IMG/VR virus record: IMGVR_UViG_3300048817_000084
Length of the DNA stretch: 64,000 nt
Strand: one strand, 5' to 3'
From: a virus
Shown: positions 5,137 to 32,786 of the stretch, in pieces
Numbering within the stretch: position 1 is the first letter of the stretch
How the letters are laid out: the number at the start of each line of letters is the position of its first letter
The notes under the pieces: model-generated
What the model was told of the DNA's origin: nothing
Databases searched by the model: none
What the model saw: only the letters and a program-made list of their open reading frames with translations
Translations under genes and position numbers: made by a program

Positions 5137-5529
5137 TTGCGCAAACTCCTCCTCGCTCTTCTGGCGATCGCATTGCTGTGCCCAAAAGTGCAGGGACAGT
5201 CTACCTGGGAGTTTGATCACAAGACGTATTCGTTTGATCCTACCGACCTGCATTGTGGCCCGCTGCGGTATGCGGTCATGCAACCAATGTGCGATGGATG
5301 CTTGGGTGATCCGGTGTTCGCCTGCCAATCGGAGCCCGGTCTATCGCTCATCGACGTCGCATTGCAGGAGACAAAGTGGGTTGTGGACTGTCTTGCGGAG
5401 CCGTGCAAGCCACCCGCGAATCAGCCGCCGCCGCAATGGGTAGCCGCGTTTCCGTCACCACCAGAAGAGCTGACATATATTGCCGATCCCGCGACTGCGG
5501 GCGAGCTCGTATACCGGAATCTACACTGA
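5137..5529 (+). CDS. exported Cys-rich small protein (130 aa)
   Basis: TTG start. Signal peptide MRKLLLALLAIALLCPKVQG/QS. Several Cys in the mature part. Shares a 23-nt identical signal-peptide stretch with the gene at 19168. Confidence 0.6.
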   Translation: MRKLLLALLAIALLCPKVQGQSTWEFDHKTYSFDPTDLHCGPLRYAVMQPMCDGCLGDPVFACQSEPGLSLIDVALQETKWVVDCLAEPCKPPANQPPPQWVAAFPSPPEELTYIADPATAGELVYRNLH

Positions 5530-13573: not shown

Positions 13574-14155
13574 ATGACAAAGGGATCGTTGATTGAATAT
13601 CAGGCGCTCAAGATCGCCACGCTTGAGCAGGAGATTGAGAAGTATCGCATTGCTATAGCAGCCCAGTTATGGGGGAATAGTGGTGGGTGTGTTGCCAACC
13701 TGCGGTGCGTTGCTGGAGAGTTCGGTATCACCAAGGAAATGGCTTGCTCGCCCGTGGTGGAGATTAACAATTACTCGCACACTCACCAAGAGAAGCGGTT
13801 ACGTGAGGAACTGCATCGCCTGGATGAGTTAATGGCGTTGCATAGCCATGTCACGGGTGTCGATTTCAGGTACCAACGTGAGCTGATTAACGAACTAGAA
13901 GCCCTTACCGGGAAGATTGTTTATTACGCTAACTATCCCGTCAGCAATTGGATGGAGTTTCCAGAGCTCCACCCCGATATCAAGCGGCAGATAGCCAAGG
14001 CCGCGGAGTTTTGGATGGACTTGCCTGACTTCATGTACCCGGAAGGATGGAATGGTGGTACCCCTTCCTGTGTTGGCATTACGCATGCACTGGTCCGGCT
14101 CAAAGCAGAAATCGACCGCGCAGCGCAAGAGCATAAGGGCCTGCGGTCGGCATAA
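13574..14155 (+). CDS. hypothetical cytoplasmic protein (193 aa)
   Basis: ATG at 13574 is preceded by GGAG. The track's start at 13547 would overlap the previous gene. Confidence 0.55.
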   Translation: MTKGSLIEYQALKIATLEQEIEKYRIAIAAQLWGNSGGCVANLRCVAGEFGITKEMACSPVVEINNYSHTHQEKRLREELHRLDELMALHSHVTGVDFRYQRELINELEALTGKIVYYANYPVSNWMEFPELHPDIKRQIAKAAEFWMDLPDFMYPEGWNGGTPSCVGITHALVRLKAEIDRAAQEHKGLRSA

Positions 14156-14661
14156 TGGCCAACCAAGACGTCGCCATCAGCTACGCATTGAGCTTTGAGG
14201 ACAGCAAGCTTACCGGCGTGATCACCACCAATGATGACGGCGTAACCAAAACTCGGTATGGGATCGATCAGCGGTTTCACCAGGATTTGGGTGCCAGCGG
14301 GTTCTTCAAGGATATGGGCTCTATCGCCGCCCTGCAGATAGCTAAGGGCGTGTATGCACAAAGCTACTGCCTGCCGCTGTGCATCACGGAAATTTCCAAC
14401 CAGGACATTGCGAACAAGCTGCTGTCGCTCGGGATCAACATTGGCGTAAAGCCGGTGAGTAAATTCCTGCAAGACGCTGTTGGGGTCACGGAAGACGGCG
14501 TAATCGGCGTGCAGACGCTGATGAAGCTTAGTTCTGCGGACTCGCTGCTGGTGCTCACTGATCTGCGCGCTTCGGCGGAACGATTTTACTACGCGGATGT
14601 GGCCGCAAATCCTGATAAGCAGAAGGATCTTAAGGGATGGCTAGCGAGGGCACGAGCATGA
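14155..14661 (+). CDS. GH108-like muramidase with PG_binding_3-like C-terminus (endolysin-type)
   Basis: TAATG overlap. By eye it aligns to the GH108/PG_binding_3 consensus: SFEDSK...TRYGI, LLSLGINIGVKPVSKFLQDAVGVTEDGVIGVQTLMKL, RFYY...LKGWLARA. Confidence 0.7.
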   Translation: MANQDVAISYALSFEDSKLTGVITTNDDGVTKTRYGIDQRFHQDLGASGFFKDMGSIAALQIAKGVYAQSYCLPLCITEISNQDIANKLLSLGINIGVKPVSKFLQDAVGVTEDGVIGVQTLMKLSSADSLLVLTDLRASAERFYYADVAANPDKQKDLKGWLARARA

Positions 14662-14858
14662 AACAACCAACACACGACGAGATTGAACGCGAAGCCTATT
14701 CCGAATGGGAAACGGCCGGCAGACCGGAAGGCTTCGACCCGCAAACCGGCATGGATGTTTCCGTGGCGATATGGCTGCACTCGGAGAGCCTTCTGCGGGA
14801 GTTGATGAATATCCCACTTGGGCCTGAGACGCGGCCGTCTTACGTGGTGATGCCATGA
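14658..14858 (+). CDS. DUF2934-like small protein (66 aa)
   Basis: ATGA overlap. Motif IEREAYSEWETAGRPEGFD resembles the DUF2934 signature AYxxWxxxGRPxG. Confidence 0.45.
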   Translation: MKQPTHDEIEREAYSEWETAGRPEGFDPQTGMDVSVAIWLHSESLLRELMNIPLGPETRPSYVVMP

Positions 14859-14870
14859 GCGCGGAGCTAG

Positions 14871-14963
14871 GTGGGTAAGGTGGACATCATCATCCTGATC
14901 GTCGGAGTGGCGATGGTCATTGGGATTTCCATGCTCAGCAAAAAGGGAGGACGTAACGGATGA
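14871..14963 (+). CDS. 30-aa single-TM peptide
   Basis: Not in the ORF track. GTG start after GGAG. Translation (M)GKVDIIILIVGVAMVIGISMLSKKGGRNG. Its TGA overlaps the next ATG (ATGA). Confidence 0.35.
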   Translation: MGKVDIIILIVGVAMVIGISMLSKKGGRNG

Positions 14964-15244
14964 ATTGGAAACTATGGTTACAGGGGCTACTGGCGGCGTT
15001 CGTTTCCGCGTTTGCATCCGCGGCGTCGGGGGCGATTGCACTCCCGGCGGTCTTTACTTTCGACAAGGCGGGAGTATTGAACATGATCCGCCTGGCAACG
15101 GTCCCGGCGATGATTGCACTGTTCGCCTATCTCAAACAGTATCCGACACCACAGCTCTCGGCGGTCGTGGATCAGCAGGGCAACGTTAAGGTAGTCGGTA
15201 ACCCCGTGGCTGAGGTCACGGTGACGGGAAAAAAAACACTATGA
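14960..15244 (+). CDS. two-TM membrane protein, holin candidate (94 aa)
   Basis: Hydrophobic helices LLAAFVSAFASAASGAIALPAVF and LATVPAMIALFAYL. Sits in the lysis-type cassette. Ends in an A8 tract. Confidence 0.55.
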   Translation: MNWKLWLQGLLAAFVSAFASAASGAIALPAVFTFDKAGVLNMIRLATVPAMIALFAYLKQYPTPQLSAVVDQQGNVKVVGNPVAEVTVTGKKTL

Positions 15245-16127: not shown

Positions 16128-16484
16128 ATGGCCCACACCAGATTGATTAACCTCAACGGCAGCGCGGGCGCTTTTGTCGCTGTGTCCGCAACTCAGGTAA
16201 CCCGGCGCTTCGACATAATTGAAGACGGCAGCGTTACCGCGCAGGGCATACAAATGCAATTCGCGGATGGAAACACGCCACCGTTTACCACCATCAGGAC
16301 GGTTCTACCGCCGGCCCAGCCAGTTACTCTAGGTACCCCCATTCCATGGGGCCATGGCTATGGCCTGGTGATCGGAACGCCGCCGGATAACTCGGGTGGC
16401 TATGCGATCGCGGCCACACTCTTGTGTAATCTTCGCTCAGCGACTGCGACTGCGACCACCGTCGCCGTCACGGAGTACGATTGA
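16128..16484 (+). CDS. hypothetical beta-rich protein (118 aa)
   Basis: ATG one nucleotide after the upstream TAA. Tight coupling to the next gene. Confidence 0.55.
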   Translation: MAHTRLINLNGSAGAFVAVSATQVTRRFDIIEDGSVTAQGIQMQFADGNTPPFTTIRTVLPPAQPVTLGTPIPWGHGYGLVIGTPPDNSGGYAIAATLLCNLRSATATATTVAVTEYD

Positions 16485-17590
16485 TGCGCCGGCTGCTGGT
16501 GGCCCTGATCATGGCTGCTTCGGCAGCCATTTCTATTGCTCAGCAAACTGGTGGCGGAGGTGGGGCTGGGGCTGGTGGTGGCGGAGGAGCACCTACGGGC
16601 GCGGCAGGCGGAGCGCTCAGCGGAACCTATCCTAACCCATCGATCGCGGGGGCAATCAATCCATCCTCCACGGGCGCAACGACACCAGGAACGGGGGCGT
16701 TTACGACGCTTAGTGCAAGCAGCGGAGTATCGTCCACCTCGGATGGCGTGCATGTGGGCGAAGTCAGCATCGTGGGCAATACGACCAACCCCTCCGTTAC
16801 AGCGAACACATTCAATATATTTGGCCCAGCACTTGCAACCTTTACGGCGTATTCATGGCAGGTTCCCTCCGCTGCGCCGAACTATGCGGCATTGGCGTGC
16901 GTCGGTTCCGTGTCCAGCTCAGTGTCACAGATAACTTATTGCCCCCAGGCTGGATCAGGGGCCGCGATACCTACAGGTCCAAATAGCTCTACTTCGGGAG
17001 ACTTGGTTTCGTATACAGGAACCGGCGGCCAGCAGCAAGACAGCGGTATCGCCTCGGCGAATGTTCTCGTGAAGGCTCCGCTTACTTCTTTCAGTCTCTA
17101 CAATCCGGCATCAGAAGCCAGCAACCTCGTCTTGAGCGCAGCAAACGCGGTCAACTGGGTCGCGTTCACGATTCCCGCGCAAGGGATGACCGTAACCCAT
17201 TTCGGATTCAACGTAAACGCTGTGGATGCCACGACTAGTCATCACTATGACATCTGCTTGTGGAATAGCGCGGGAACGATGGTGGCAGATCTGGGAGCCC
17301 ACGCAGGAGGCAGCGGATGGCCAGATACCCAATATGGAAATGACGTGGCTATCGCACAATCCAGTGTAACGCTGCCCGGTGGTACATATTTTGCAGGCTG
17401 GAGCGGGGATGCCACCACCCTCAACCTTAGCGCTCCGAATAATTCCGGAGTTTACTCGCTAGCGCTGTACGGGGTAGGCCCGGCGAATACAACCACCGCC
17501 GGGCAGTGTGGGAACGTGACGGTGCCATCGCCTACCACGAGCAGTAATGATGTAAACACGTATCTCGGATTCACCCTGCTGCTTCACTAA
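16484..17590 (+). CDS. exported Gly-rich fibre-like protein (368 aa)
   Basis: Signal peptide MRRLLVALIMAASAAISIAQQ. Gly run. Motif LSGTYPNPSI is common in tail-fibre proteins. Confidence 0.7.
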   Translation: MRRLLVALIMAASAAISIAQQTGGGGGAGAGGGGGAPTGAAGGALSGTYPNPSIAGAINPSSTGATTPGTGAFTTLSASSGVSSTSDGVHVGEVSIVGNTTNPSVTANTFNIFGPALATFTAYSWQVPSAAPNYAALACVGSVSSSVSQITYCPQAGSGAAIPTGPNSSTSGDLVSYTGTGGQQQDSGIASANVLVKAPLTSFSLYNPASEASNLVLSAANAVNWVAFTIPAQGMTVTHFGFNVNAVDATTSHHYDICLWNSAGTMVADLGAHAGGSGWPDTQYGNDVAIAQSSVTLPGGTYFAGWSGDATTLNLSAPNNSGVYSLALYGVGPANTTTAGQCGNVTVPSPTTSSNDVNTYLGFTLLLH

Positions 17591-17591
17591 G

Positions 17592-19013
17592 ATGAATAAA
17601 CTTATTGTTTTTGTACTGCTTACATTTTCGGTCCAGGCCTGGGCCGCGAGCTATTATCTCTCCGCTACCGGCAGCGACGGGAATAATGGAACGAGCGCAG
17701 GTGCTCCGTGGCTTACGCCGGATCACGCGGTGAATTGCGGAGATACGATCACTGCAGCGGCATCCAGTTCTTATTCTCCTGCTAACTTCCAGACATTCGG
17801 CACGGTGACATGTCCAGCCGGTAACAATGTCGCCTGGCTCATTTGTGCTACTTTCGATGCCTGCAAGATCAGCGGAATGACAAGCTCCCAGAATGCCATG
17901 ACTGTCCAGACAAGCTATTGGGGCGTGCAAGGCTGGGAAGCGGATGGGTCGGCGACCTCTGGACCGTGCTTTTTGATGTACCCGTATGCGAGCTCTATCC
18001 ACCACATTATCTTCGCCAATAACATTGCGAGCGGGTGTGGATTGAACGGTATAGCATCGTCGGAAAACAGTACCTACGGCGTGGATTACATAGCTATTTT
18101 GGGGAACATTACCTACAACGATGCAGGGGGGTCTTCGTATTGCGGCAGCGGGATTAGCATCTACGAGCCGGTGGCGTCGGACACCAAACCAGGAACCCAC
18201 ATCTATATTGCTGGGAACTTCTCCTGGGACAATTTCAACGGAAATCCCTGCAACGTAGGCACCCCTTCTGACGGGGAGGGGGTAATATTCGACACCTGGG
18301 ACGGCGTCCAGACCGGGCTATCAAACTACGGGCAGCAGGGTGTAATTGACAACAATATTCTGATCGCCAACGGTGGCCGGGGAGTCGAGACGTTCAACAA
18401 TTCTAATGGGCCCGGTCCTTTCGCCAAGATATACATTCGCAACAATACGATCTGGGGAAACAACCTTGATACCCGGCCAACCTATGCGGCCTTTGTTTGC
18501 GGCGAGACGCTTATCTACGAAGCATTCAATATCGAATCGTTTCAAAACATAGTCGCGACTTCGGCAACAAATGGGTGCAATGGCGGTACCACTCCGGTAT
18601 ACAGCTTTTCCGTGAGTAGCGGAAATGGCACCGACCACGTGTACCAGGATTACATTTACGCAGTTGGCGGGACAACTCAGGGCATAACCAGCTCGACCGG
18701 GTTCTCGTATGGGCCGAATAATATAGTCGGCACGAGCCCCTCTTTCTCTAGCGCAGTTGCTCCAGGAGTCCCCTCATGCGGTAGCTATGCCAGTGTTCCG
18801 GCTTGCATGGCAACCGTGATCGCCAATTTTATGCCAACAGCCACATTGGCCAAGCCCTACGGATACCAAACGCCGAGCCCCATCAGCAGATACGACCCGC
18901 TCTTTCCGCAGTGGCTGTGCAACGTCAATCTGCCGGCTGGATTAGTCACGCCGGGATGTTTGACGGCCTCGGCCAGTTCAGGCGCTAGTATCAGCGGCAG
19001 CAAGATTCAGTAA
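17592..19013 (+). CDS. exported right-handed beta-helix protein (473 aa)
   Basis: Signal peptide MNKLIVFVLLTFSVQAWA/A. Has the pectate-lyase-fold N-cap motif SYYLSATGSDGNNGTSAGAPW and repeated N/G-rich beta-helix turns. Confidence 0.75.
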   Translation: MNKLIVFVLLTFSVQAWAASYYLSATGSDGNNGTSAGAPWLTPDHAVNCGDTITAAASSSYSPANFQTFGTVTCPAGNNVAWLICATFDACKISGMTSSQNAMTVQTSYWGVQGWEADGSATSGPCFLMYPYASSIHHIIFANNIASGCGLNGIASSENSTYGVDYIAILGNITYNDAGGSSYCGSGISIYEPVASDTKPGTHIYIAGNFSWDNFNGNPCNVGTPSDGEGVIFDTWDGVQTGLSNYGQQGVIDNNILIANGGRGVETFNNSNGPGPFAKIYIRNNTIWGNNLDTRPTYAAFVCGETLIYEAFNIESFQNIVATSATNGCNGGTTPVYSFSVSSGNGTDHVYQDYIYAVGGTTQGITSSTGFSYGPNNIVGTSPSFSSAVAPGVPSCGSYASVPACMATVIANFMPTATLAKPYGYQTPSPISRYDPLFPQWLCNVNLPAGLVTPGCLTASASSGASISGSKIQ

Positions 19014-19063: not shown

Positions 19064-19171
19064 ATGTTGAAGAAAGCAGTGCTGTTCCTGGCGCTCTGCC
19101 TGACTGCGCTCATTTCTCCGTGGGCAGGCGCGCAGGGCGTAGCTGACCGAACAAAATTAGCGATTCGATGA
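19064..19171 (+). CDS. 35-aa signal-peptide-only ORF (leader ORF or gene remnant)
   Basis: Not in the ORF track. AGGA RBS. Translation MLKKAVLFLALCLTALISPWAGAQGVADRTKLAIR. Its TGA overlaps the ATG of the next gene (ATGA). Confidence 0.35.
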   Translation: MLKKAVLFLALCLTALISPWAGAQGVADRTKLAIR

Positions 19172-22122
19172 AAAAACTCCTCGCTCTTCTGGCGATCGCC
19201 GCTGCGTGCCTGCTCGGACAGGATAGCTATGCCCAAAATGTCGAAGGCCAAATCATTGCTTCGCAGTTCGGCGCATACCAAGTCCCAGGCATCGCCACCG
19301 GATCGCTGCAATTTGAGCCGGCCAGCTGCCAGGTGATTGGTGGTGGCAAGAACTTCAATGCGTTCAGCGTGGGTGTGCCGGTAAAGATTGTTGACTCGAA
19401 CCCCCTGCTGAACGAGATCGATACGCCGTCCTCAGTGCAGATAAACGCCTGCACCATATCGATGGCGACAAGCCATATTCATGCAACGCCGTTCTATGTG
19501 ACATCAGGCACAGGCGGCCTGCAGGAAGCACTGATCAACGGGCTCTCGAAGGCAGGCGGCGCAAATACCGTCATCCTGAACGCTGACTGGTATGCGCAGG
19601 TGCTGCCCGGTAATCCAGCGACTGTGATTGCTGCGGTCAAAGGAAGCACCACGCTGGGCCTAGTGGACGTAACCACGACTCCGTACACGTCTTACACCTG
19701 GAATGGTTCGGCCTACGCGGCAAATGGAACAGGCGGCGCAAACACTCCAGCCACCAGCAACCTGCTGAAGGGCAACGGCGCTGCTAACGGAGTAATTCCA
19801 GCGGTTCCAGGCACAGACTTTCTTGTTCCAGGGGCCCTGCCCGGCACCACAACAGCAACGACTCAAACGACAGGCGACAACACGACCAAGGTGGCGACCG
19901 ACGCGTTCGTGCTGGGCAATTCGGCGACCGCGTCCATCCCAAACACGGTGGCACTCCTCAAGGGTGCTGGGGTTGCTGGTTCGGCGGCAGCAGCTACAGT
20001 AGGTACTGACTACTTTGGTCCGCAGACAGCCACGGCCGCATATCAGACCCCTCTGTCTACGGGAGCAGGAACCACCTTCGCTCCGGGTGGCGTCCCGGTG
20101 TCATTCGGCACAGCGCAAACCCAATACATCCAGCAGCAAGTCACCAACTCGAATTACACCACGCTAAACATCAACTCCCTCAACGATGAAATTTGGGTCG
20201 AGGGATTCACTGGCGGACCATATACGGGAATCGGTCAGACGCAGGTAGCATGGGTGACCGCGACGAACTACCCGCTCTGCCAGAACGTGAGTTACTCGGG
20301 GGGAAACTACGTAGCCATCACCTACCCGAATTCCTCGGTCACTCCGACCAGCAACGTTACGGTATGGTGGCCAAAAGCAACCTCTGACGCCACCACGCAA
20401 GCAGATTGCGCCTTCGCTAGCGCGGCAGGTAAGGCGGCCGCCACTAGCAAGCAGCAGACCTTGCGCGCTGGCTCTGGTAGCTGGAATATGACTGGCTGGA
20501 TTGAGCCCGGCGGCCTCTACTCGGTCAACATCAAAAGCTGCGGCATCTTCTGCGGCACCTGGAATTTCACCGGCACGGCTGCCGTGCCCATGGTGCAGCG
20601 TGCCACAGGTGGAGCGTTTACCTTTCTTGACGTGTCAGACGCCTACTGGGAGCCGAATCAAGTAGCCTCCTCGATCTTCGACCTGGGAGCGCTGAATCAA
20701 AGCCATTTCGACAACATGCAGTGGGACAACCCTGCACCTCTGGGAACGGGGAACTCGGGGAACTTCTTCGCACGTTTCGGTGAATCGGGCGGCGACGGAT
20801 TTCAGGTCTATCCAAACAACATCACCATGGGCACTTCGCCCACAAATCACAATACGGCTACGATCACCGCGAACTTGACCGGCACCACGCTGACATCGTT
20901 CACGCTTGTCAATGGTGGGTCTGGGTACCTACCGGCCGCCGCCAACAACATTCTTTACCTGCAAATCAACGGATACAAAGGGGGTACGTCTTTCCAGCCC
21001 TGCACAGTCATGCCGACATGGTCAGGCAATCCATTCACCGTTGTCTCCGGGGTCATAACCGCCGTAGCGGCCCCGACATCAGGAGGAACAGGTTGCTCGG
21101 GAACCATCGACGTTGCCGCCTACAGCTACTTCCCTGTGCAGTGGGGCATCTACAATAACGCCTCGGACTCGACGCTCAAAGACATCACCATCTATGCCAG
21201 CAGCCCTTACGGCGCCGGGATCTATGACAATGGCGGGGACACGCACCACATCCACATCCATCCCAGCTTTATTACCAACGGAATCGCGACCATCTGCGCG
21301 AACGATACCTATGAAAGCACGGAGCTCGACAACGTTTATAACCAGGGGTTTCAGTTCAACCAGCCGTTTGCGGGCACGGGATGCGCGGTATCTGGAACAC
21401 ATTCTTATGGCGCTACCGCGAAGGGAAACGCGGTCTATTACTTCGCAAGTGCATTAGCTCAGGTCACGATTGGGACCTCTGCCTCTCTTTCCGGAGGGAC
21501 GACCGCGGCTGACTGGCAAGAGTTTGTAACTCAGTCCGGGACGATCGCCGCAACTTCCGACTGGGCAACGAAAGCTCCATCCGGGCTGGTGGTTACTGGA
21601 AACGACCTCTCCGCTGGCGAGGCCATGGGCGACTGGCAGCCGATCATCAACGCGACCACAGCAAATATCGGGACCCTGAATGCTACAACCTTCAACCCGT
21701 CCAGCATCGGCTCGGTGAGCATCACGGCGAATACGCTGGGCACGGCTACCAGCGGAACGAATTACAGCTCTGGGAACATTACCCTCTCGGGCAGTTACTA
21801 CAACTCGACGGCTCACCTTAGCAACTGGGTAATTACCAACCAGATCGGCGCTGGAACCAACCCCGTAACCGCGCTCAACTTTGCCTGCTCCACTGGGTCG
21901 ACGGGTCAATGTCAGGCTAATTTCAGTAACTCCGTTCTTGGCGCGCAAATCATTAAGACGACCGGTTACACGGTAGCTGCTTTGCCCTCCGCATCAACTT
22001 CTGGTGCAGGGGCACAGGTTACGGTCACTGATGCAACCACCTTCACTCCGGGAACTTGCACTGGGGGCGGGTCGGATTACATGATCGCCATTTCGAACGG
22101 GTCGACATGGAGCTGCCATTAA
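19168..22122 (+). CDS. exported fibre-like protein, family member B (984 aa)
   Basis: Signal peptide MKKLLALLAIAAACLLGQDSYA/QNVEG. Shared N-domain. Tail-fibre motifs PGTDFLVP and TGDNTTKVATDAFVLG. Confidence 0.8.
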   Translation: MKKLLALLAIAAACLLGQDSYAQNVEGQIIASQFGAYQVPGIATGSLQFEPASCQVIGGGKNFNAFSVGVPVKIVDSNPLLNEIDTPSSVQINACTISMATSHIHATPFYVTSGTGGLQEALINGLSKAGGANTVILNADWYAQVLPGNPATVIAAVKGSTTLGLVDVTTTPYTSYTWNGSAYAANGTGGANTPATSNLLKGNGAANGVIPAVPGTDFLVPGALPGTTTATTQTTGDNTTKVATDAFVLGNSATASIPNTVALLKGAGVAGSAAAATVGTDYFGPQTATAAYQTPLSTGAGTTFAPGGVPVSFGTAQTQYIQQQVTNSNYTTLNINSLNDEIWVEGFTGGPYTGIGQTQVAWVTATNYPLCQNVSYSGGNYVAITYPNSSVTPTSNVTVWWPKATSDATTQADCAFASAAGKAAATSKQQTLRAGSGSWNMTGWIEPGGLYSVNIKSCGIFCGTWNFTGTAAVPMVQRATGGAFTFLDVSDAYWEPNQVASSIFDLGALNQSHFDNMQWDNPAPLGTGNSGNFFARFGESGGDGFQVYPNNITMGTSPTNHNTATITANLTGTTLTSFTLVNGGSGYLPAAANNILYLQINGYKGGTSFQPCTVMPTWSGNPFTVVSGVITAVAAPTSGGTGCSGTIDVAAYSYFPVQWGIYNNASDSTLKDITIYASSPYGAGIYDNGGDTHHIHIHPSFITNGIATICANDTYESTELDNVYNQGFQFNQPFAGTGCAVSGTHSYGATAKGNAVYYFASALAQVTIGTSASLSGGTTAADWQEFVTQSGTIAATSDWATKAPSGLVVTGNDLSAGEAMGDWQPIINATTANIGTLNATTFNPSSIGSVSITANTLGTATSGTNYSSGNITLSGSYYNSTAHLSNWVITNQIGAGTNPVTALNFACSTGSTGQCQANFSNSVLGAQIIKTTGYTVAALPSASTSGAGAQVTVTDATTFTPGTCTGGGSDYMIAISNGSTWSCH

Positions 22123-22138
22123 AAGCCTTCTGGCGTTC

Positions 22139-24784
22139 GTGATCTTCCTGCTGTGCTGCACGCATGTGCAGGCACAGAACGTGGAAGGCCAGATCATCGC
22201 TTCGCAATACGGCGAGTTCAAGGTTGCCAGCCAGAGCACAGGCGCTTTCCAATTCCCGCCCGCTACATGCCAGGTGAGCGGTGGAAACAAGAACTTTGAT
22301 GCCTTCAGTGTCGGCACTGCAGTAAAGATCGTTGATTCAAATCCCGCGCTGACAGAAGTAGCCACCCCAAGCAGCGTATACATCGGGCAGTGCGTCATCA
22401 ACATGGCCACGACTTACACGCACGTGCCGCCGTTCTATCTGACCTCCGGAACAGGCGGCCTGCAAGAGGCAATCACAGCAAACCAGCAAGGTATTGCAGG
22501 GCCAAACAGCGTCATTCTCAACGCGGAATGGTACGCACTGATTCAGCCGCGAAACGCCGCAACGGTCATCGCTTCCGTACATGGCAACACCAGCATGCCA
22601 CTGGTCGACATCACGACTACCCCGTACACGTGGTATCAGTGGGGCGGCTCGGCCTATGCTGCAGTGACTATCAGCGGCAGTGGATTGCCCCTATCCGGCG
22701 GGACGATGTACGGAACTTTGTTTGCGCCGAACATCAACGGCGAAGTCTATCCAGCTTCGTGCGGCCTCTCGCCTGCGCCTTCATGGTGCTCGGGAACGAC
22801 TGCGGATGCGTGGATTCGCGCGGCATGTACACAGCTACCTGCGGCTGGTGGGACGATCAACCTGCTTGGATTGACGGGAACCATCGCAGCGAGTGTCCCA
22901 TGCAGCACGCCGACAAAGCAGGTAATCACGCTCCAAGACCCAACTTCCACGTTGACCATCACCGAATCAGACGGGGGAATCGTCTTCCCGCTGGACAACG
23001 GGAGCATGCTTCTTGGGCCAGGAGCGGGGCAATGCACCAATGCTGGCGGGATTCATCTGGCAAGCGGTGCAAGCGTGACAGCCATCGTTGGGCCAGCGCA
23101 CACCGATGGGACGCAGGAGAATTTCACCGCCAATGGGCTTTGCATCTACGGAGCCGCCGGTGCGACAGTATCGAAAGGCTTGATTTACGCCAGCCACACG
23201 TATGCTAATACCTCATTTGATGGCAATACCATCAGCGTGTGCAACACGGCTTGCATGATGATTCTAGACAGCGGATCAATTCAGATCACCAATAACTGGC
23301 TGAACGTCTCTGATGGAGTGGACTCTATCACCGGAACCCCTCTGATCATTCAGGGAACAGGTGGAGGTGGGTGCAACGTGGGTCCAATCTGGGTAACCGG
23401 GGACCAGATCGAGCACGCTCTCGGAGGCAGTCCAGAGATTGTCATCGAAGGAGACGGAACCGGGTCGCCTCTTGCCTGCGATATCCACATTAAGGATGTG
23501 GGAATAGAGCGACAACATGGTGGTGGGACACCATCATCGATTGGGATAAGCATTGCTGATTGCAAGAATTGTAGCGTTGACAGTATTGTGTCGACGGGTG
23601 TAACGGGCGGTTCGGCGATGGTGCAGATTGCGTCGAACAGCTCCGGCAGTGTGGCCAACGTAAGCCTGACCAACATCAGCAACATCTTCGGCTCCTATGC
23701 CAACACGGTCAATGACACGTCGGCTGGAGTTGAGTTATCGTTTCTCGCTCAGCCACTTGTCGCCACCTATTACTCTAACCCGGGTTATGTTCAACCCCCG
23801 GCACTTCCCGGAACCACGCTCCAATCAGTGGGCAGCGATGTGATGAGTGGCTTAGGTAATTTCTCCACCGGGAGCAGCACAATCGGAACCGACTTTTACG
23901 TTACCGGATGCTTCGGTTCTATTACCTGCACCCTCACGCGCACCAACTCGTCGCCACCACCCGGCTACACATACTCGCAAGAAGTCGACATTACCGCGAA
24001 CTCTGATACTGGCGTCGGGTTTAATGGTTTGCAGTATGGTTCAGCAGTTAGCTTCACGGCGGGGCAGACTTACATCGCCAGCTTCTGGGGTAAGGGAGAT
24101 GGCACGTTCACTGGGTTGCCGACATTTGTTCTGCAAGATACGTCGATCCCGGCCTACTATTGCACCAACATATCACCCACAGCGTTTACGACAACGTGGA
24201 CGCTCTACTCGTTCACTTGCACGCCGACTACATCCGGCAGCGCTTACCTGGCCGTGGCTGCACGCACTCCGATCGGGGCGACGGGAGCCTTTTGGTTTGG
24301 CGGCTTCGTTGTCGCTCCAGTAGCTCCGCTCACTCCCGGAAATCTCCTGAGTTCCATTTCCCCTTACGGGGTTGGTCCAGCCACCACCGGCCAGCAGGCC
24401 ATCACCATCAACAGTACGCCCTGCGAGTTGGGGGGAAGCTGCAGCGTAACGAGTAGCGGCGCATCACCTTACACGATTACCGCTTCCGGTACACCAGTCA
24501 TCAATCTGGCGAACGGCCCACTGCAAACGATAACCCTAACCTCCGCCGCTACGGCAACCGTGACAGGTATCGCGGCCGGAAGTCGCTTGGCTATGCAGAT
24601 ATGTGAAGGGTCCACGGTCTACGCATGGACTTGGGCCGCCGCAATCCATGGGGGAATTTGCGTAGGCCCATCGTGCTCTCCATATCCATCGCAGGCAAAT
24701 ACCTGCTCGATGCAAACATTCAATTCGTATACCGGGACGACGCTGGTGCCGGAGAACATAGGAGTCGTAAATGTCTCTCCGTAG
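22139..24784 (+). CDS. exported beta-helix protein, family member C (881 aa from GTG; possibly starts at ATT 22118)
   Basis: Shared N-domain (QNVEGQIIASQYGEF...TSGTGGLQEA). Beta-helix-like middle part. The GTG start gives a truncated signal peptide. In-frame ATT at 22118 restores (I)KSLLAFVIFLLCCTHVQA/QNVEG. Confidence 0.8.
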   Translation: MIFLLCCTHVQAQNVEGQIIASQYGEFKVASQSTGAFQFPPATCQVSGGNKNFDAFSVGTAVKIVDSNPALTEVATPSSVYIGQCVINMATTYTHVPPFYLTSGTGGLQEAITANQQGIAGPNSVILNAEWYALIQPRNAATVIASVHGNTSMPLVDITTTPYTWYQWGGSAYAAVTISGSGLPLSGGTMYGTLFAPNINGEVYPASCGLSPAPSWCSGTTADAWIRAACTQLPAAGGTINLLGLTGTIAASVPCSTPTKQVITLQDPTSTLTITESDGGIVFPLDNGSMLLGPGAGQCTNAGGIHLASGASVTAIVGPAHTDGTQENFTANGLCIYGAAGATVSKGLIYASHTYANTSFDGNTISVCNTACMMILDSGSIQITNNWLNVSDGVDSITGTPLIIQGTGGGGCNVGPIWVTGDQIEHALGGSPEIVIEGDGTGSPLACDIHIKDVGIERQHGGGTPSSIGISIADCKNCSVDSIVSTGVTGGSAMVQIASNSSGSVANVSLTNISNIFGSYANTVNDTSAGVELSFLAQPLVATYYSNPGYVQPPALPGTTLQSVGSDVMSGLGNFSTGSSTIGTDFYVTGCFGSITCTLTRTNSSPPPGYTYSQEVDITANSDTGVGFNGLQYGSAVSFTAGQTYIASFWGKGDGTFTGLPTFVLQDTSIPAYYCTNISPTAFTTTWTLYSFTCTPTTSGSAYLAVAARTPIGATGAFWFGGFVVAPVAPLTPGNLLSSISPYGVGPATTGQQAITINSTPCELGGSCSVTSSGASPYTITASGTPVINLANGPLQTITLTSAATATVTGIAAGSRLAMQICEGSTVYAWTWAAAIHGGICVGPSCSPYPSQANTCSMQTFNSYTGTTLVPENIGVVNVSP

Positions 24785-26714: not shown

Positions 26715-26900
26715 CTAGTAGCGCGGCCCTTTCCTTCGGGAAACCCAATACGTAATCAGTCCGACGATGCCTGCTGAGACGGCGATAAAAAACGCGAGCC
26801 CAAGAGCCCCGGGTAGAGACTCAATCAGCAAATGCCAGACGAAGCGTAAGAAGTTCACCGCACCACTATAGCAAATCCAAGAGTTCAGGAGAAAACACAT
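26715..26900 (-). CDS. small two-TM membrane protein on the opposite strand (61 aa)
   Basis: Fills the only + strand coding gap in the array exactly. Translation MCFLLNSWICYSGAVNFLRFVWHLLIESLPGALGLAFFIAVSAGIVGLITYWVSRRKGPRY. Third-position GC is about 60% by a hand count. Confidence 0.4.
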   Translation of the reverse strand: MCFLLNSWICYSGAVNFLRFVWHLLIESLPGALGLAFFIAVSAGIVGLITYWVSRRKGPRY

Positions 26901-27786
26901 GGTTCGCAAAAAGATAGTTGTTGCCCTTCTGTGCCTGTCGGCAACCGGCTTTGCACAGACAATTACCAAGGCAGGTATAGCCACTCAGTTCAACCAGTGG
27001 CGCGCGCCCGGGACCACCAACCTCATCGCTGGAGCCAATGCCCTGGTGCCGATTGCCTCATGCGCAATCTCGGCAGGAGGGGTGAACACTTATGCCCTTG
27101 CGGCATCGACGCCGATAAAAATCAACGACCCCGGCAATCCGGCGATTGACGAAATTATCACGCCTACCGTGGTTGTGCAGGGGGGTGCATGCACAGCGAC
27201 CTTCACCACCAGCAATGCCCACCCGGCGCCGTGGTACATCACCAGCGGAACGTTCGGACTGCAGGACGCAATTAATGCGGTCGTGGCGACTGGGGTTATG
27301 AATGTGGTGCAGCTTGATGCTGCGTGGTTCAATAGCGGCGGCACGGCGACGACCATCTACGGCGCCGCTGGAAGCCCATACGTATCGATTGTGGCGTCAA
27401 ACCTCACGCCCTACCCAACCTATCGATGGAATGGAACTCACTATATTCCTACCTACTCTCTGCTTGGGAGCATCGGCACGGTTCCGGCAATTGCAGCAGG
27501 TGCGGCGGCCGGCAGTTCCCCAACTGTTCTAACTGCGGCTGGATCTTCCGGCAACATTATCACCGCGGACGTGACCACGGGGACAGCGACGACGACTGGC
27601 ACGCTATTTACGGAGACAGTTGGGACCGCTCCAGCCTCAGGAAACATGGACTGCACCGTCCAGAGCGTCGGCGCCAACGTTCCACCTGCATTCACGGTAT
27701 CAATCACTGGAGGTGTTGCGACTATTGCCGTGGCCGCTGCTCCGGTGGTGTCGACGGCATACATCTTCGCACTGGCGTGCAACTAG
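26899..27786 (+). CDS. exported minimal family member D (295 aa)
   Basis: Signal peptide MVRKKIVVALLCLSATGFA/Q. Divergent shared N-domain (WYITSGTFGLQDAIN, YRWNGTHYIP) joined directly to the shared C-terminal module. Confidence 0.7.
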   Translation: MVRKKIVVALLCLSATGFAQTITKAGIATQFNQWRAPGTTNLIAGANALVPIASCAISAGGVNTYALAASTPIKINDPGNPAIDEIITPTVVVQGGACTATFTTSNAHPAPWYITSGTFGLQDAINAVVATGVMNVVQLDAAWFNSGGTATTIYGAAGSPYVSIVASNLTPYPTYRWNGTHYIPTYSLLGSIGTVPAIAAGAAAGSSPTVLTAAGSSGNIITADVTTGTATTTGTLFTETVGTAPASGNMDCTVQSVGANVPPAFTVSITGGVATIAVAAAPVVSTAYIFALACN

Positions 27787-28221
27787 ATGTGGAGGCTTCC
27801 ATGGATACCCCGATTCCTGTACGAGGACCTGAAGGCGGAAATCTCCGACCTGAAGCGCGAGCGGCAGATTTTATACGACCGTCTAGCAACTCTGGGGCTG
27901 GGTGGTCCGCTCTTCACCTTGCCGAGCTCGCAAGATTCATCACCAATTACGGAACCAGAGGAGGAATCAATTAGCGAAGAGGAGCAGGAGCAAATATATA
28001 TGGCATCCCTGCGACCCTCGAAGCGCGCGCACTATCTCGAATGGAAGATGAATCGCGATCGCAATAGGGTCAATCGGGGCCCAAGTGTGGCACATATCAC
28101 GCCCGAGCCGGTTGCCAAAGTAACCGCTGCACTTGAGCAAGCCGAGCAGGCAGGGAAGAGCTCGGCTGGCGCTGAATTCGTAAAGTCTACCCTCGCCGTA
28201 TTTAGAAAGAAACAGGCTTAG
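27787..28221 (+). CDS. hypothetical acidic protein (144 aa)
   Basis: ATG directly after the upstream TAG. Coiled-coil-like N-terminus and an acidic stretch. Confidence 0.5.
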   Translation: MWRLPWIPRFLYEDLKAEISDLKRERQILYDRLATLGLGGPLFTLPSSQDSSPITEPEEESISEEEQEQIYMASLRPSKRAHYLEWKMNRDRNRVNRGPSVAHITPEPVAKVTAALEQAEQAGKSSAGAEFVKSTLAVFRKKQA

Positions 28222-28222
28222 A

Positions 28223-30856
28223 TTGGCCACAACGCCCACCCTCGACATGCAACAGCAATCGCAGGTGATCCCACCGCAAGAGCAGCCATCCCAGGAGCAC
28301 ACAAGCTCCGCGCCGATGGTTGGCGACGCGCAAGATCCCCAGAATAGCGGTGGCATCACCGAGGATGACCAGCGGGCACTCATTGCGCTCGTAAGAAAAT
28401 ATCGTGACCAGTGGTCCGCGAACCGCGTGTTCCTGCGTCAGCGCTGCGTTCGTAACCTGGAGTTCTTCAAGGGCAATCAATACATATCTTTCGAGCCAGG
28501 AAGCACGCAGTTCGTGGGCGGAGGCGATTGGTTCGGTTCTGGCATCGGGAACGGCACGCATGAGCAGAACGCGGACGACACCGATATTTATAAAAAGTGC
28601 AAGAACTTCTTTCAAATGTTGTGCGTTGGGTTCATTGCTGCGCTTTGTCCGCAGGTGCCCAAGTCAAAGTGGATGCCGGTGAACGCGGAGGAGCTTGCTG
28701 ACGTAGCCACAGCCAAAGCCGCACAAATCCTCATCGACATAGTTGAGCGCGACAACAAAGAGGCGTCGCTACTCAAAGGGCAGTTGCTCTATATGTGGAA
28801 CTGCGGTGCTGCCTTCCGCCATACACGCTATATCGTGAGCGCAGAGCGGGTTGGAACCAAGAAAGAGCCAATCTACAACTCGACTGAGACCGAGATCATG
28901 CCCGCGCGCATGCACTGTTACAGCTGCGGCGCAGACAACCCGGCCGGGACGCAACAGTGCGCTAACTGCGGAAAGCGCATGCTTGATGACAGCTTTTATC
29001 CCCCCGTGACCGGGCCGGTTACGCAACAGGTCGGGACTGAAGAGGTTCCGCAGGGCGCAGTCGTTCAGAATTTGTATAGCCCGCTCGAAATAGATGCTGA
29101 CCCTGGCGCTAGCAGCTTGCTCGACACGCCAATCCTCAACCTGGAGGTCGAGATTCATATTGCGGCACTACGCGCGGCCTATCCGACCATGTACAAGGAG
29201 ATCCAGGCGTCCGCGTCCAGCGTGCTCTCTTCCAACGGCTCCATCGATCGGCTTGCAAGGCAGCAAATCTATTCACAAACCAGCGGCCAGATGGACATTC
29301 TCTCCAACATGAAGCCTACGCTTTCGCGGACATGGATTCAGCCGTGGGCATTCGATCTTGAGGATGATCAGGAATTCGGCGTGCGGATGAGAGCAGCCTT
29401 CCCTAGTGGTTGCCTGCTGATCAACACTGGGGAAACGTTCCTTACTGCCAAAGAGGCTGACCTCAACAAAGAGTGGACCTGGGCTGGTACGCACGAGAAC
29501 TTCAAAATGTTCCCTCCCGCGCCTGGGGACGTAGTTGTCCCATTTCAGGAGGACTACAACGACCTGTCCAATATCTTGCAGGAGGGTATCGACCGCTGCG
29601 TTTCCGGGATCATCCTGGGCAACGATGACTTGATTGGCGGAAATGCGATGCAGGGCAAGCGGCTGCTTCCGGGAATCATCAACGGAGTCAAGCTGAAACG
29701 GACCGGTGCGCCGGGTTCCATGAAGCTGGAAGACGCTCTATGGCAGTTTGAAATTGAACTCAAGATTCAAGAGGCGATGGCCTACTGCAAAGAGCAGATG
29801 ATGGACGCCCAGATGTATGCCATGGTGCCTCCCCAGGTATACGGCGGTCAGGGCGACCCCTCGATTGAGACAGCGGCCGGCCAAAAGCAGCAACTGGGTA
29901 CAGCCATGGGAGTGCTCAACATCTACTGGGAGAATCTGAAAGATGAGCACGCGGCGGCAGATGAACGTGCTGTAGCATGTGCGGCCGACAATCTCACCGA
30001 TGACCTCCAGGACGTAATCGAAGAAAAGGACGGCTACCAGAATCAGTATGTGCGCCTGGATGATCTGCAGGGCAGCGTTCATGCCTATGCGGACACAGAT
30101 CAAGGCTTGCCTGTATCGGCTTCTGAGCTACGCCAGCGCTGGATGGACCTGATTACCGCGGCAGAAAACAACCCAGTGGCTGCAGCGATCTTTGACGACC
30201 CTGCAAACCAAGAACAGGCAGCGGACGCGATGGGTGTATCGGGCATGGTGGTACCCGGTGCGGCGATGCGGACCAAGGTGCTGATGGTCATTAAGAAACT
30301 GCTGCAGGCCGAACCTATGCCGGTCATTGATCCGCAGACTGGTCAACCTGCAGTCGATCCACAGTCTGGCCAGCCGAAGCTGCAGCCATCGATCATGCCG
30401 ACCAAGGGTATCGATGACAACCCAGACGCGGTAAAGGTTGGGAAGCAGACCATCTGGCAGTATTGCCAGGATAAGCCGCAGATTGCCGATGACAAGCCGC
30501 AGGGATTCCAGAACATCTTGCTCTACCTGTTCGCTTTGATAGCCATGGGGGCTGCATACGATGTGCAGGATGCTCAGGCAGCAGGAGCGGCTGAAGGAAC
30601 AAAACAGGGAGCAGCGATGCAAGCCGCGGCCCCGCCGCCGAAACCGCCGCCGCAGTTGTCGCCACAAGAGCAGAACATGCTCTCTCTGGTTCGCCAGGAC
30701 GGTGCCGAAGCCATGGCAGCCCAACTCAAGATCGCTGAGACAGGCAAGCTCGGTCAGGGAGAAAGCCTGCAAGCCCAGACAGCTGCGGCTAATTCACTGA
30801 TACAGCTTGCGGCCAAGGTCGAACAGATCGCCGCAGATAAGACTTCTATTCAATAA
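28223..30856 (+). CDS. portal-like protein with inserted zinc ribbon (877 aa)
   Basis: Called from its size and its position directly before the scaffold-like and capsid-like genes. The call is positional, not motif-verified. Contains CYSCGADNPAGTQQCANCG. Confidence 0.55.
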   Translation: MATTPTLDMQQQSQVIPPQEQPSQEHTSSAPMVGDAQDPQNSGGITEDDQRALIALVRKYRDQWSANRVFLRQRCVRNLEFFKGNQYISFEPGSTQFVGGGDWFGSGIGNGTHEQNADDTDIYKKCKNFFQMLCVGFIAALCPQVPKSKWMPVNAEELADVATAKAAQILIDIVERDNKEASLLKGQLLYMWNCGAAFRHTRYIVSAERVGTKKEPIYNSTETEIMPARMHCYSCGADNPAGTQQCANCGKRMLDDSFYPPVTGPVTQQVGTEEVPQGAVVQNLYSPLEIDADPGASSLLDTPILNLEVEIHIAALRAAYPTMYKEIQASASSVLSSNGSIDRLARQQIYSQTSGQMDILSNMKPTLSRTWIQPWAFDLEDDQEFGVRMRAAFPSGCLLINTGETFLTAKEADLNKEWTWAGTHENFKMFPPAPGDVVVPFQEDYNDLSNILQEGIDRCVSGIILGNDDLIGGNAMQGKRLLPGIINGVKLKRTGAPGSMKLEDALWQFEIELKIQEAMAYCKEQMMDAQMYAMVPPQVYGGQGDPSIETAAGQKQQLGTAMGVLNIYWENLKDEHAAADERAVACAADNLTDDLQDVIEEKDGYQNQYVRLDDLQGSVHAYADTDQGLPVSASELRQRWMDLITAAENNPVAAAIFDDPANQEQAADAMGVSGMVVPGAAMRTKVLMVIKKLLQAEPMPVIDPQTGQPAVDPQSGQPKLQPSIMPTKGIDDNPDAVKVGKQTIWQYCQDKPQIADDKPQGFQNILLYLFALIAMGAAYDVQDAQAAGAAEGTKQGAAMQAAAPPPKPPPQLSPQEQNMLSLVRQDGAEAMAAQLKIAETGKLGQGESLQAQTAAANSLIQLAAKVEQIAADKTSIQ

Positions 30857-30865
30857 GAGGACCAC

Positions 30866-32461
30866 ATGCCAGCAGAAACAGTAGCAGCACCCGCCCCAGC
30901 GGTGGCAAGCACTTCCGCGCCCGCAGCTAGCCCAGCACCTGCCGCAGCACCGTCTAGCGCCCCTGCAGCCTCTCCAGCCCCAGCAGCAGCGCCTGCTGCA
31001 GCACAGCCAACCTTCGGCCGCAACTCTGGCGTAACCAGCCATGTTGATCCAGGCCAGTTCCGCAACACGAACGAATACACACAGGCCGTGCTGGCTGAGC
31101 AGCTGGCGGCTGGAGCTGCGGTTCAAGATGCGCCTGCCCCGGTTGAGGAAGCGGTTGCAGTGGCTGAGCCGGTTGTATCAGATACCCCGGTCGAAGTCCC
31201 TGCACCCGACGCCGTTGCGGAAGAAAAGCCGGCAGAGACCGCAGAGCCGGACTTTGATCTTGAGCCTGAGACCATCGTCACCCCGGAAGCCCTGCAGCAG
31301 ATGATTACGGAGAACGCAGACTTCGCCAAACTGCTGCAGGACGACCCCAAGCTAAATGGGCGCCTGCACAAGACGGCGCGCGAAGCCGCGGAACTCAAGC
31401 CATACCGGGAAATCTTCCCTGACCTCGAATCGGCGAAATCTGCGGTAGGAGCTGCAGCAGAATGGAACGATGTGCGCGAAACCTTCATGGGCTCGACCAC
31501 CAGAGAAGGAACGCTCAAGACTCTGGCGCGCTTGACTGAGTTGTCTTACGAGCGCGACGATACCGGCAACGTTCTCTATAAGGACGACCAGCCGGTCATC
31601 GGGGAGGATCTGCACGGCTTCCTCGATAATGTTTGGGCGATTGAGATGGAGGACCGAAAATCTGACATCCAGAAGCGTCTCGATGCAAATCAATACCACG
31701 TTGGGGTAAAGACCGACGAGGAAAGGGACGCCGCTATCCGGCTGGATCAGGGACGGCTAGCCCTGATTGACGATCTTCTGGGGCAAGTGGTCGAAGCACC
31801 TGAAACGCAGGACATGACACCTGCACAGCAGCGTCGACAGCAGGAGCAGGACGCCCGCGATAAAGAGTGGCAGCAAAAACAGCAGGGCGAAAAGGTTGGC
31901 GAGCGGCAGAAGTTCGAAACCACCATGCAGACCGCAGCCCAGGACCGGCTGAATGGCGAAATCGCCAAGATCATGGCCAGCGTCGAGAAGCAGGGCGGCG
32001 TCGTCAGCCCCTATCTGAAGAACATCTTGCCTAAAGCCATCGCCTCGAAGGTGATTGGGAAGATTCTTGCCAACCCGACATTACAGGCTCAGATGCATAA
32101 CCTCCAACGGCTTCCTATGGGCGATGACGCACGCACCCGCAGAGTGGCTGCCATTGATCGCGCTTACCAGACGTATCTGGGAGGCGTTGCCCGCGAAGAG
32201 TTGAGGGAAGCGGGAGTGCAGATCGCCAACGCCTCCGCAGCTAAGCGCGCCAAGATCGACGGGCAGATTGACAACACCCGCAAGACCGAGCCCACCAGAG
32301 GTTCAACGGGAGCGGTGACTGCTGGGAGAACACCCATGACCGCCGATGCTGCCTACGAAACTGCCAAAGGGGAGTGGATCAAAGCTAACCCCGGCAGACG
32401 TTTCGACAAGAGCGCAGAAGGCAATATCTTGCAGCGTGTCGTCAATTTGCAGTTGCAGTAA
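30866..32461 (+). CDS. scaffold-like protein (531 aa)
   Basis: AGAGGA RBS. Ala/Pro-rich low-complexity N-terminus, then an acidic helical body. Lies between the portal-like and capsid-like genes. Confidence 0.45.
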   Translation: MPAETVAAPAPAVASTSAPAASPAPAAAPSSAPAASPAPAAAPAAAQPTFGRNSGVTSHVDPGQFRNTNEYTQAVLAEQLAAGAAVQDAPAPVEEAVAVAEPVVSDTPVEVPAPDAVAEEKPAETAEPDFDLEPETIVTPEALQQMITENADFAKLLQDDPKLNGRLHKTAREAAELKPYREIFPDLESAKSAVGAAAEWNDVRETFMGSTTREGTLKTLARLTELSYERDDTGNVLYKDDQPVIGEDLHGFLDNVWAIEMEDRKSDIQKRLDANQYHVGVKTDEERDAAIRLDQGRLALIDDLLGQVVEAPETQDMTPAQQRRQQEQDARDKEWQQKQQGEKVGERQKFETTMQTAAQDRLNGEIAKIMASVEKQGGVVSPYLKNILPKAIASKVIGKILANPTLQAQMHNLQRLPMGDDARTRRVAAIDRAYQTYLGGVAREELREAGVQIANASAAKRAKIDGQIDNTRKTEPTRGSTGAVTAGRTPMTADAAYETAKGEWIKANPGRRFDKSAEGNILQRVVNLQLQ

Positions 32462-32786
32462 GAAGGTTGCAGCGGGCCCAAATCTTCTGAGCTACGGGCC
32501 CCCGCGTGGCGGACCCGGTGGTTCTGCTAGTCCCACGACCTCCCAGCGCGATTATCTGGGCGCTCTTAAAGCAGATAGGCAGCCTGCCAGCCCGGCACGA
32601 CCGCTGCAAGACAAGTTTATCAGTTCCGCGCTAATTCGACTCGCTCAGAAGAGGTAACGCCGCCACCTCCCGGCGATAGAGCACCTGAGTCAAGTAAGCG
32701 CCTTCGCAGAAACATGCCGTCCCGGCTAAGTGCCTGGATGCGACCCAACATCTAACCCGCGCCCCATGTGGCGCTGAGGACCCATT

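Follow-up and report, generated by a model that had tools for sequence, protein, structure and literature searches.

Does a set of phage proteins built like tail fibres belong to the virion or to the envelope of the host cell? This question is raised by the 64,000-nucleotide stretch of viral DNA in IMG/VR record IMGVR_UViG_3300048817_000084 (hereafter the window, meaning the whole of that stretch), where four + strand genes, A to D, share an N-terminal domain of ~165 aa. We refer to this domain as the handle and to what follows it as the body. Based on our comparisons, the handle is very likely a new extracytoplasmic domain, carried by Sec-exported, disulfide-bonded, modular proteins that resemble fibres or depolymerases. 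We tentatively propose that these proteins form an exported set acting on the cell envelope, with the handle tethering them to a conserved envelope component.

Four genes share an N-terminal domain

The family profile was built from the four window handles, and the coordinates below come from hmmsearch with this alignment profile. A slash marks the predicted cleavage site.

about 5526-10013, +: gene A, ~1495 aa
5526-5582, +: signal peptide of A, LKKLLGVLILLLCSAPMQG/Q; start codon uncertain
5583-6086, +: handle of A, ~165 aa (E 2.7e-75)
6087-10013, +: body of A, ~1300 aa
19168-22122, +: gene B, 984 aa
19168-19233, +: signal peptide of B, MKKLLALLAIAAACLLGQDSYA/Q
19234-19725, +: handle of B (E 3.1e-84)
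19726-22122, +: body of B, 798 aa, beginning with what we take to be a fibre-repeat linker
22139-24784, +: gene C, 881 aa counted from GTG at 22139
22118-22174, +: signal peptide of C, MKSLLAFVIFLLCCTHVQA/Q, from the probable ATT start at 22118
22175-22666, +: handle of C (E 4.5e-83)
22667-24784, +: body of C, 705 aa, 24 Cys; weak, sub-threshold CBM_4_9 match
26899-27786, +: gene D, 295 aa
26899-26955, +: signal peptide of D, MVRKKIVVALLCLSATGFA/Q
26956-27456, +: handle of D, the most divergent paralogue (E 5.4e-71)
27457-27786, +: C-terminal beta-sandwich of D, 109 aa, high-confidence model

An earlier note on this DNA had described four paralogues with a common N-terminal domain, and formal alignment bears this out. 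A MAFFT alignment of the first ~190 residues of A-D contains 35 invariant columns, with a mean column identity of 58-62%, and the similarity is significant in every BLASTP pair: B/C (E 7e-61, 60% identity), A/B (2e-43), A/C (1e-37), B/D (6e-28), A/D (3e-20), and C/D (5e-19). The domain limits and motif that the note had given agree with the profile search of A-D to within one codon. All-against-all BLAST of the window proteins found no fifth copy. At the DNA level, where B and C had been called similar, the resemblance is modest: 64% identity in the handle vs 49% in a body control.

Beyond the N-terminal ~200 residues, pairwise BLASTP of A-D gave no high-scoring segment pair at E < 0.1. The claim that the downstream parts differ completely therefore stands as far as sequence similarity goes, but its description of one of them as almost nothing does not fit D, which ends in the 109-aa beta-sandwich. 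This C-terminal domain is 65% identical in one relative, and D-like proteins of ~293 aa are plentiful in metagenomes. Its local alignment with the C-terminus of A is not significant (z = 2 against shuffles).

Two of the starts are unusual. At 5526, A has CTG as its leader codon, which overlaps the stop upstream (cTGA); an in-frame ATG at 5436 is the alternative. In C, ATT at 22118 overlaps the stop of B (ATTAA), while the first canonical start, GTG at 22139, would shorten the n-region; the ATT is probably the true start. These leader/stop overlaps (5526-5529 for A, 22118-22122 for C) suggest termination-reinitiation coupling.

The handle follows a signal peptide and comes with paired cysteines

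We judged signal peptides by a home-made rule rather than by SignalP. A leader-like stretch precedes the handle in all four window genes, as the earlier note had mentioned in passing, and this leader is the key feature of the family. A basic n-region and a hydrophobic stretch of 10-15 residues stand before all 136 full-length handle hits (from the 111 loci described below), and the same pattern is found in 125 of the 132 N-complete representatives of clusters formed at 50% identity. Leader sequences are not conserved between members, though their organization is kept even at 30-40% handle identity. In the 93 cases where the predicted cleavage site could be projected well, position -1 is A, G, or S in 92%, -3 is A, V, L, S, G, or T, and +1 is Gln in 85. 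Together with the lack of a twin-arginine motif, these are the characteristics of Sec/signal peptidase I substrates. A lipoprotein reading was rejected, as only three of the 93 leaders contain a strict lipobox. Cysteine is nonetheless enriched in these leaders at -7 (24%) and -6 (18%), mostly in LLC contexts other than lipoboxes.

The handle is found only at the N-terminus, straight after the leader: the domain starts at about residue 13-60 in all representatives, in proteins of up to 2196 aa, and it was never seen without a leader in the family. The mature N-terminal residues are conserved. Two cysteines are invariant in the handle, which has exactly two in 117 of 127 members. The number of cysteines is even in the predicted mature part of 115 of 127 (p = 3e-22) and in 83 of 96 bodies of at least 300 aa (p = 1e-13). 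The window itself encodes ten signal-peptide proteins between 2399 and 27786 (in order, the 745-aa, 130-aa, A, 919-aa, 369-aa, 473-aa, B, C, 647-aa, and D proteins). All ten have an even number of mature cysteines vs 8 of 15 Cys-containing leaderless proteins (leader boundaries by eye). Nine of them contain 1-2.6% K+R and 37-45% S/T/G/N, the exception being the 130-aa protein (6.2% and 15%). No head or tail-region protein, from 28223 onward, has a leader.

From the leader organization, the cleavage-site statistics, and the Cys parity, we infer that A-D and their family are truly exported and disulfide-bonded. The leader is obligate across the family, with paired cysteines alongside it, and export of the tail-fibre look-alikes A-D from the cell is likely.

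The usual view is that tail fibres and tailspikes are both produced and attached in the cytoplasm, and for phage proteins that combine a common N-terminus with a body of fibre or spike type, ordinary fibres assembled there are what one would expect beforehand. The hydrophobic N-terminus would then be unused for export; it might sit buried in the tail as a plug, for instance, or be an artefact of annotation. We consider this very unlikely, given that a full n/h/c leader with a signal peptidase I site persists in about 95% of members despite sequence drift, that cysteines are so strongly paired, and that the handle never occurs without its leader. Cytoplasmic synthesis without a secretion signal is a trait of all characterised tailed phages that A-D do not share. 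One study argued for the phage origin of proteins from their having no signal peptide (PMC6199706). An export step on a modular handle-plus-body family is unprecedented.

A new family from one lineage of soil phages

A profile search of a 5.8-billion-sequence set returned 116 proteins with the handle, all unannotated and many of them fragments. The family comprises at least 578 clusters (50% identity, E <= 1e-3), 381 of which reach E <= 1e-10. We located the handle at 65 genomic loci, nearly all in metagenome-assembled genomes of Acidobacteriaceae, and at 46 more on IMG/VR contigs, several of them 57-69 kb long. In 99 of these 111 loci, homologues of other genes of the window phage are present, most often the portal-like protein (68), a 118-aa protein (63), and the endolysin (63). 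Each phage has two to four handle genes, commonly ordered A, B, C. Almost all members thus come from one lineage of ~60-70 kb temperate Acidobacteriaceae phages that is abundant in soil. Neither blastn nor tblastn matched B or C to any of 50,697 isolated phage genomes.

No library names this domain. The handles of A-D have no match in Pfam (E <= 0.1), NCBIfam, or PHROGs, and the handle profile matches nothing among PDB sequences. An AlphaFold2 (AF2) model of mature D with 54 homologues (pLDDT 88, pTM 0.80) shows a compact mixed alpha/beta handle followed by the small beta-sandwich. Foldseek of this model against PDB gave no credible match (best E 0.04, TM <= 0.23), including none to the P22 tailspike head-binding domain or other solved fibre anchors. 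There is likewise no Pfam or PHROG match on A-D to the T7 gp17-type N-terminal domain (Phage_T7_tail). Against BFVD, the only matches of the model were RcapNL gp25 and proteins of uncultured phages that have no characterised function (E 2e-6). The gp25 protein has no signal peptide, and its match is not assignable to a given part of D. Based on these library, PDB-sequence, and Foldseek results, the handle is a new family by sequence, without a match among solved structures. In P0117 numbering, its invariant residues are C52, D74, C93, H103, T113, G115, Q117, E118, D165, Y174, and W176; the polar and aromatic ones among them (D, H, T, Q, E, D, Y, and W) would be compatible with a ligand site.

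The strict position of the handle right after the cleavage site, and never elsewhere, raises the possibility that it is an export or folding device. As the first part out of SecYEG, it would align the chains and nucleate N-to-C folding of a trimeric or beta-helical body. In a variant, it would be a recognition signal for outer-membrane crossing, like a two-partner secretion (TPS) domain. In FHA, HMW1, ShlA, and CdiA, the TPS domain likewise comes straight after the signal peptide, and these exoproteins are very long, fibrous or beta-helical, and variable in their distal parts. Conservation of the mature N-terminal residues agrees with such a device, which would be needed equally in phage and chromosomal copies (see dN/dS below), and D, with a handle and little else, is hard to see as an enzyme. 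However, six further exported fibre-like proteins of the same block have no handle, and in the AF2 model the handle folds as a compact globule of mixed alpha/beta type instead of as a beta-helix cap. TPS domains are longer (~250 vs 165 aa) and differ in predicted fold. Pfam detected neither Haemagg_act (TPS) nor TpsB (POTRA + beta-barrel) in the window or the chromosomal loci, and no Omp85-type or usher-type partner gene is present in either. The handle resembles TPS domains in position alone, and we regard an export device as improbable.

Bodies are exchanged behind a constant handle

The closest handle to that of B (locus L001, 74% identity) sits on an unrelated body, while the body of B recurs at 70% identity in locus L069, behind a handle merely 63% identical. 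The last 61 aa of B are also found in the chromosomal protein L031 (62%), and C-terminal tips are common to otherwise different proteins. The body of A aligns with A-type bodies of relatives at ~30% identity across ~70% of its length. These comparisons show a constant handle with swappable bodies. The earlier idea of a shared domain with interchangeable bodies is thus borne out, but the handle has no similarity to the anchors of solved tail fibres or tailspikes.

The few bodies that could be recognised look like beta-helices of the pectate-lyase type. Pfam searches of 48 diverse members found PF12708 in three, PF13229 in two, and K1-lyase_C in one, and C-type fragments carry a precomputed PF12708 annotation. 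The bodies of window A-D have no Pfam match save the sub-threshold CBM_4_9 in C. After the handle, A-C contain repeat motifs that we take to be of tail-fibre type.

Of the 30 C-type proteins, 29 keep a ~707-aa body, and window C alone has an unrelated body of similar length (705 aa). Pairwise identity of the conserved body across those 29 phages averages ~68% (roughly 65-95%), similar to that of the portal-like protein. The position is also fixed in relatives, in the order 118-aa gene, C-type gene, 144-aa gene, portal-like gene. Judged by this conservation, the C-type body looks like a core gene, unlike a hypervariable receptor binder.

Virion-attached receptor-binding proteins of related phages likewise keep their N-terminus and exchange their C-terminal bodies, and the multi-tailspike and fibre anchors (T7 gp17 N-domain, P22 head-binding domain, K1-5/SP6 adaptor, T4 gp10-like CBA120/G7C) are the nearest comparison. 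They also combine a constant N-module of 100-200 residues with unrelated recombining bodies, occur as several paralogues per genome, and recombine at the module boundary. The handle differs in standing behind a cleavable Sec signal peptide, in its invariant Cys pair, in having chromosomal copies, and in that its attachment to a virion is putative. It fails to belong to this anchor class in two respects: it has no sequence or fold similarity to a known anchor, and it has a secretion signal.

Chromosomal copies are under purifying selection

Five of the 65 genomic loci (L043, L046, L050, L053, and L031) are ordinary chromosomal, non-phage neighbourhoods. The first four are syntenic in four species, flanked by glucose-6-phosphate dehydrogenase, short-chain dehydrogenase (SDR), DinB, acyltransferase, and GT1 glycosyltransferase genes. 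L031 lies in a GT4/DegT/ATP-grasp polysaccharide cluster and is followed by two more leader-bearing proteins. The chromosomal handle proteins are 1174-2034 aa long, with bodies that are mosaics of those of the phages. Across the four syntenic loci, dN/dS is 0.06-0.12 for the handle and the same for the body. The handle is therefore under purifying selection in chromosomal copies, without an adjacent phage. Two of these genomes also harbour the prophage. Fibre modules are thus exchanged between phages and chromosomal polysaccharide loci of Acidobacteriaceae.

A parallel is WceF of Pantoea stewartii, an exported trimeric enzyme of tailspike fold from an exopolysaccharide cluster, which retains a P22-type N-terminal domain (PMC7949094). 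Like the chromosomal copies described here, it combines a signal peptide, a polysaccharide cluster, and a phage-type N-domain. WceF differs in its Tat (twin-arginine) leader and P22-like N-domain and is a cellular one-off, whereas in the present family Sec leaders occur on the phage copies too, and the N-domain has another fold.

Action at the envelope or on the virion

How might the proteins work? In the scheme that we tentatively prefer, the genes would be expressed alongside the lysis and head genes, as their same-strand packing and overlapping or abutting arrangement implies. Sec would export the precursors, and signal peptidase I would remove the leader so that the mature chain starts with Gln, a step that the leaders point to strongly. 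In the periplasm, one disulfide would form in the handle and paired disulfides in the bodies, as expected from the Cys statistics. The handle would then confer a common attachment or assembly function on every protein, so that bodies could be freely exchanged by recombination at the handle/body junction. Rather than being tail fibres assembled in the cytoplasm, the proteins would work in the cell envelope or on it: the handle would tether them to a conserved envelope component, probably a glycan, and the bodies would cut or bind surface polysaccharide. Possible uses include progeny escape, receptor destruction on the producing cell, and remodelling of the lysogen surface.

Several observations make us lean toward action at the envelope: the conventional meaning of a signal peptide, the selected chromosomal orthologues, the core-gene character of the C-type protein, the invariant polar and aromatic handle residues, and a leaderless 366-aa protein that could be the virion's own receptor binder. 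This 366-aa protein adjoins the 1003-aa tail-region protein; no relatives of it were found in viral contigs. Secreted-glycanase-type accessory domains in neighbouring signal-peptide proteins also appear to favour an envelope role. Secreted glycanases, which join a carbohydrate-binding module (CBM) to a catalytic domain, likewise carry a constant non-catalytic module with invariant aromatic and polar residues on exported enzymes with different bodies. They differ in that no CBM family matches the handle, which is almost confined to one phage lineage and for which binding is putative. Altogether, an extracytoplasmic role accounts for the export, Cys, and chromosomal facts no less well than virion anchoring does, and docking of the handle to the virion is doubtful.

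Other observations weigh against an envelope role. A constant N-terminus followed by a variable C-terminus typifies receptor-binding proteins attached to virions, and the bodies include putative tailspike-type beta-helices and repeats presumably of tail-fibre type. About a third of the genome is taken up by the exported block, which is situated within the late structural region; there, the stop of D directly abuts the 144-aa gene and the portal-like gene starts one base further on. The family is overwhelmingly phage-borne (99 of 111 loci), and the chromosomal copies are no proof of a non-virion role because WceF, though exported, keeps a phage head-binding domain. No envelope partner or ligand was identified, and no route across the outer membrane is evident.

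Much of this would instead suit receptor-binding fibres or spikes that mature in the periplasm. A-D would be exported by Sec, fold and form disulfides there, and join fibre-less particles at lysis or in the lysate, with the handle as a tail-docking domain and the holin and endolysin merging the compartments. The architecture and body swapping match multi-spike phages, and the genes stand in the late region beside the lysis genes, with the 118-aa/C-type/144-aa/portal-like order conserved. Late attachment is physically possible: P22 tailspikes and T4 and T7 fibres attach last, and do so spontaneously in vitro. In distant phages reached through alignment of the portal-like protein (26-42% identity), the fibre-like open reading frames (ORFs) checked upstream of the portal-like gene again have a signal peptide or signal anchor, and no classical leaderless fibre was found at that position among the ORFs checked in the relatives examined. 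With leaders in distant relatives too, the exported fibre-like set is a trait of the whole phage lineage.

Such periplasmic maturation would, however, be unprecedented. We know of no tailed phage with a virion protein that passes through Sec, and full-text literature searches turned up neither Sec-exported tail fibres nor any account of these phages. It also leaves unexplained why purifying selection maintains the handle in chromosomal orthologues that have no phage next to them and why the C-type body is conserved as much as the portal-like protein, and ten different exported proteins are many for a short tail. Two distant relatives, L135 (6784-9588) and L144 (5841-9302), have at the C-type position a protein with a conserved ~80-aa cytoplasmic part containing CxTHPxH, a membrane span, and an ARA/QG site, ending in a ~830-aa fibre-like body; this layout, like the lack of a fold match to solved fibre anchors, speaks against a mounted fibre. 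We therefore see periplasm-matured fibres as a real but doubtful option, although this possibility and an envelope-acting set are nearly equal.

In either case, an abundant soil-phage lineage has obligate secretion signals and paired cysteines on its fibre-like proteins. Either tailed phages can assemble in two compartments, or a third of a phage genome is spent on secreted tailspike-like enzymes, and either would alter the annotation of such genes. If the fibres do mature in the periplasm, the tailed virion would have an assembly line that runs through two compartments, perhaps an adaptation yielding acid-stable, disulfide-locked fibres. The result is also relevant to the prediction of host range and to viral "auxiliary" glycanases in the carbon turnover of peat and soil, and it adds a domain family of at least 578 clusters that is unnamed in any library searched.

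Genome context

The features around A-D are listed here; the portal-like, scaffold-like, and capsid-like roles are assigned from position and size.

2399-4636, +: beta-helix protein with signal peptide, 745 aa from TTG 2399, MKTLLFALLIIVASTAFA/GT
5137-5529, +: 130-aa signal-peptide protein, 6 mature Cys; stop overlaps the leader of A
9991-12750, +: 919-aa signal-peptide protein with Big_2, CHB_HEX_C_1, and Fn3_assoc domains
14155-15244, +: endolysin (phrog_315; 14155-14661) and holin-like membrane protein, inside the block of exported-protein genes
16128-16484, +: 118-aa protein, no signal peptide, predicted jelly roll
16481-19013, +: two signal-peptide proteins, 369 aa (16481-17590; Gly-rich with AAGGALSGTYPNP repeat) and 473 aa
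24771-26714, +: 647-aa signal-peptide protein between C and D
27787-34064, +: genes downstream of D: 144-aa, 877-aa portal-like, 531-aa scaffold-like, and 425-aa capsid-like proteins, abutting or nearly so, no signal peptides
47828-49435, +: large terminase
50476-51138, -: GDSL-type lipase/acylhydrolase on the early side, lipoprotein-like leader MKHFLPLALIFATG/C

The large terminase identifies a tailed phage and, with an ERF recombinase and an integrase encoded on the - strand, the window is from a temperate one. From 28223, the + strand order is 877-, 531-, and 425-aa proteins, then 1003- and 366-aa proteins, then 650- and 571-aa proteins, a small terminase-like protein, and the terminase. 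From sizes and order alone, this resembles the T7-type, podovirus-like arrangement. The 1003-aa tail-region and 877-aa portal-like proteins have no PDB sequence match, so the T7-like order continues to be read from sizes and order. Nearly all other window proteins are dark to Pfam, PHROGs, NCBIfam, and PDB sequence searches, and a promoter/terminator scan of 12-31 kb found nothing above shuffled expectation.

The 745-aa protein has a conserved N-terminal module of its own (~270 aa), which precedes handle genes by 1-2 kb even in the viral contigs that diverge most (L085-L104). It is a second family with a constant module and a variable body in the same phages. The repeat AAGGALSG(S/T)YPNP occurs in the 369-aa exported protein and in many copies in the bodies of the chromosomal handle proteins (L043-L053).

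The portal-like protein (28223-30856) contains a small Cys-rich insertion whose C232, C235, and C249 are invariant, kept down to 26% identity; its residues 231-250 weakly match a double zinc ribbon.

The 118-aa protein is conserved like the portal-like protein (60-85% identity, at least 110 relatives), and its gene lies directly upstream of the C-type gene in most relatives. Its AF2 model (pLDDT 89) is an eight-strand jelly roll with weak structural matches. We considered it as an export chaperone or a docking protein; it is not SecB-like, and its weak matches gave no hint of either role. The exact 118-aa protein of the window (P0257) is present on 22 contigs, the longest of 71,338 bp. The complete genome of the window phage is probably ~70 kb and recurs in several samples.

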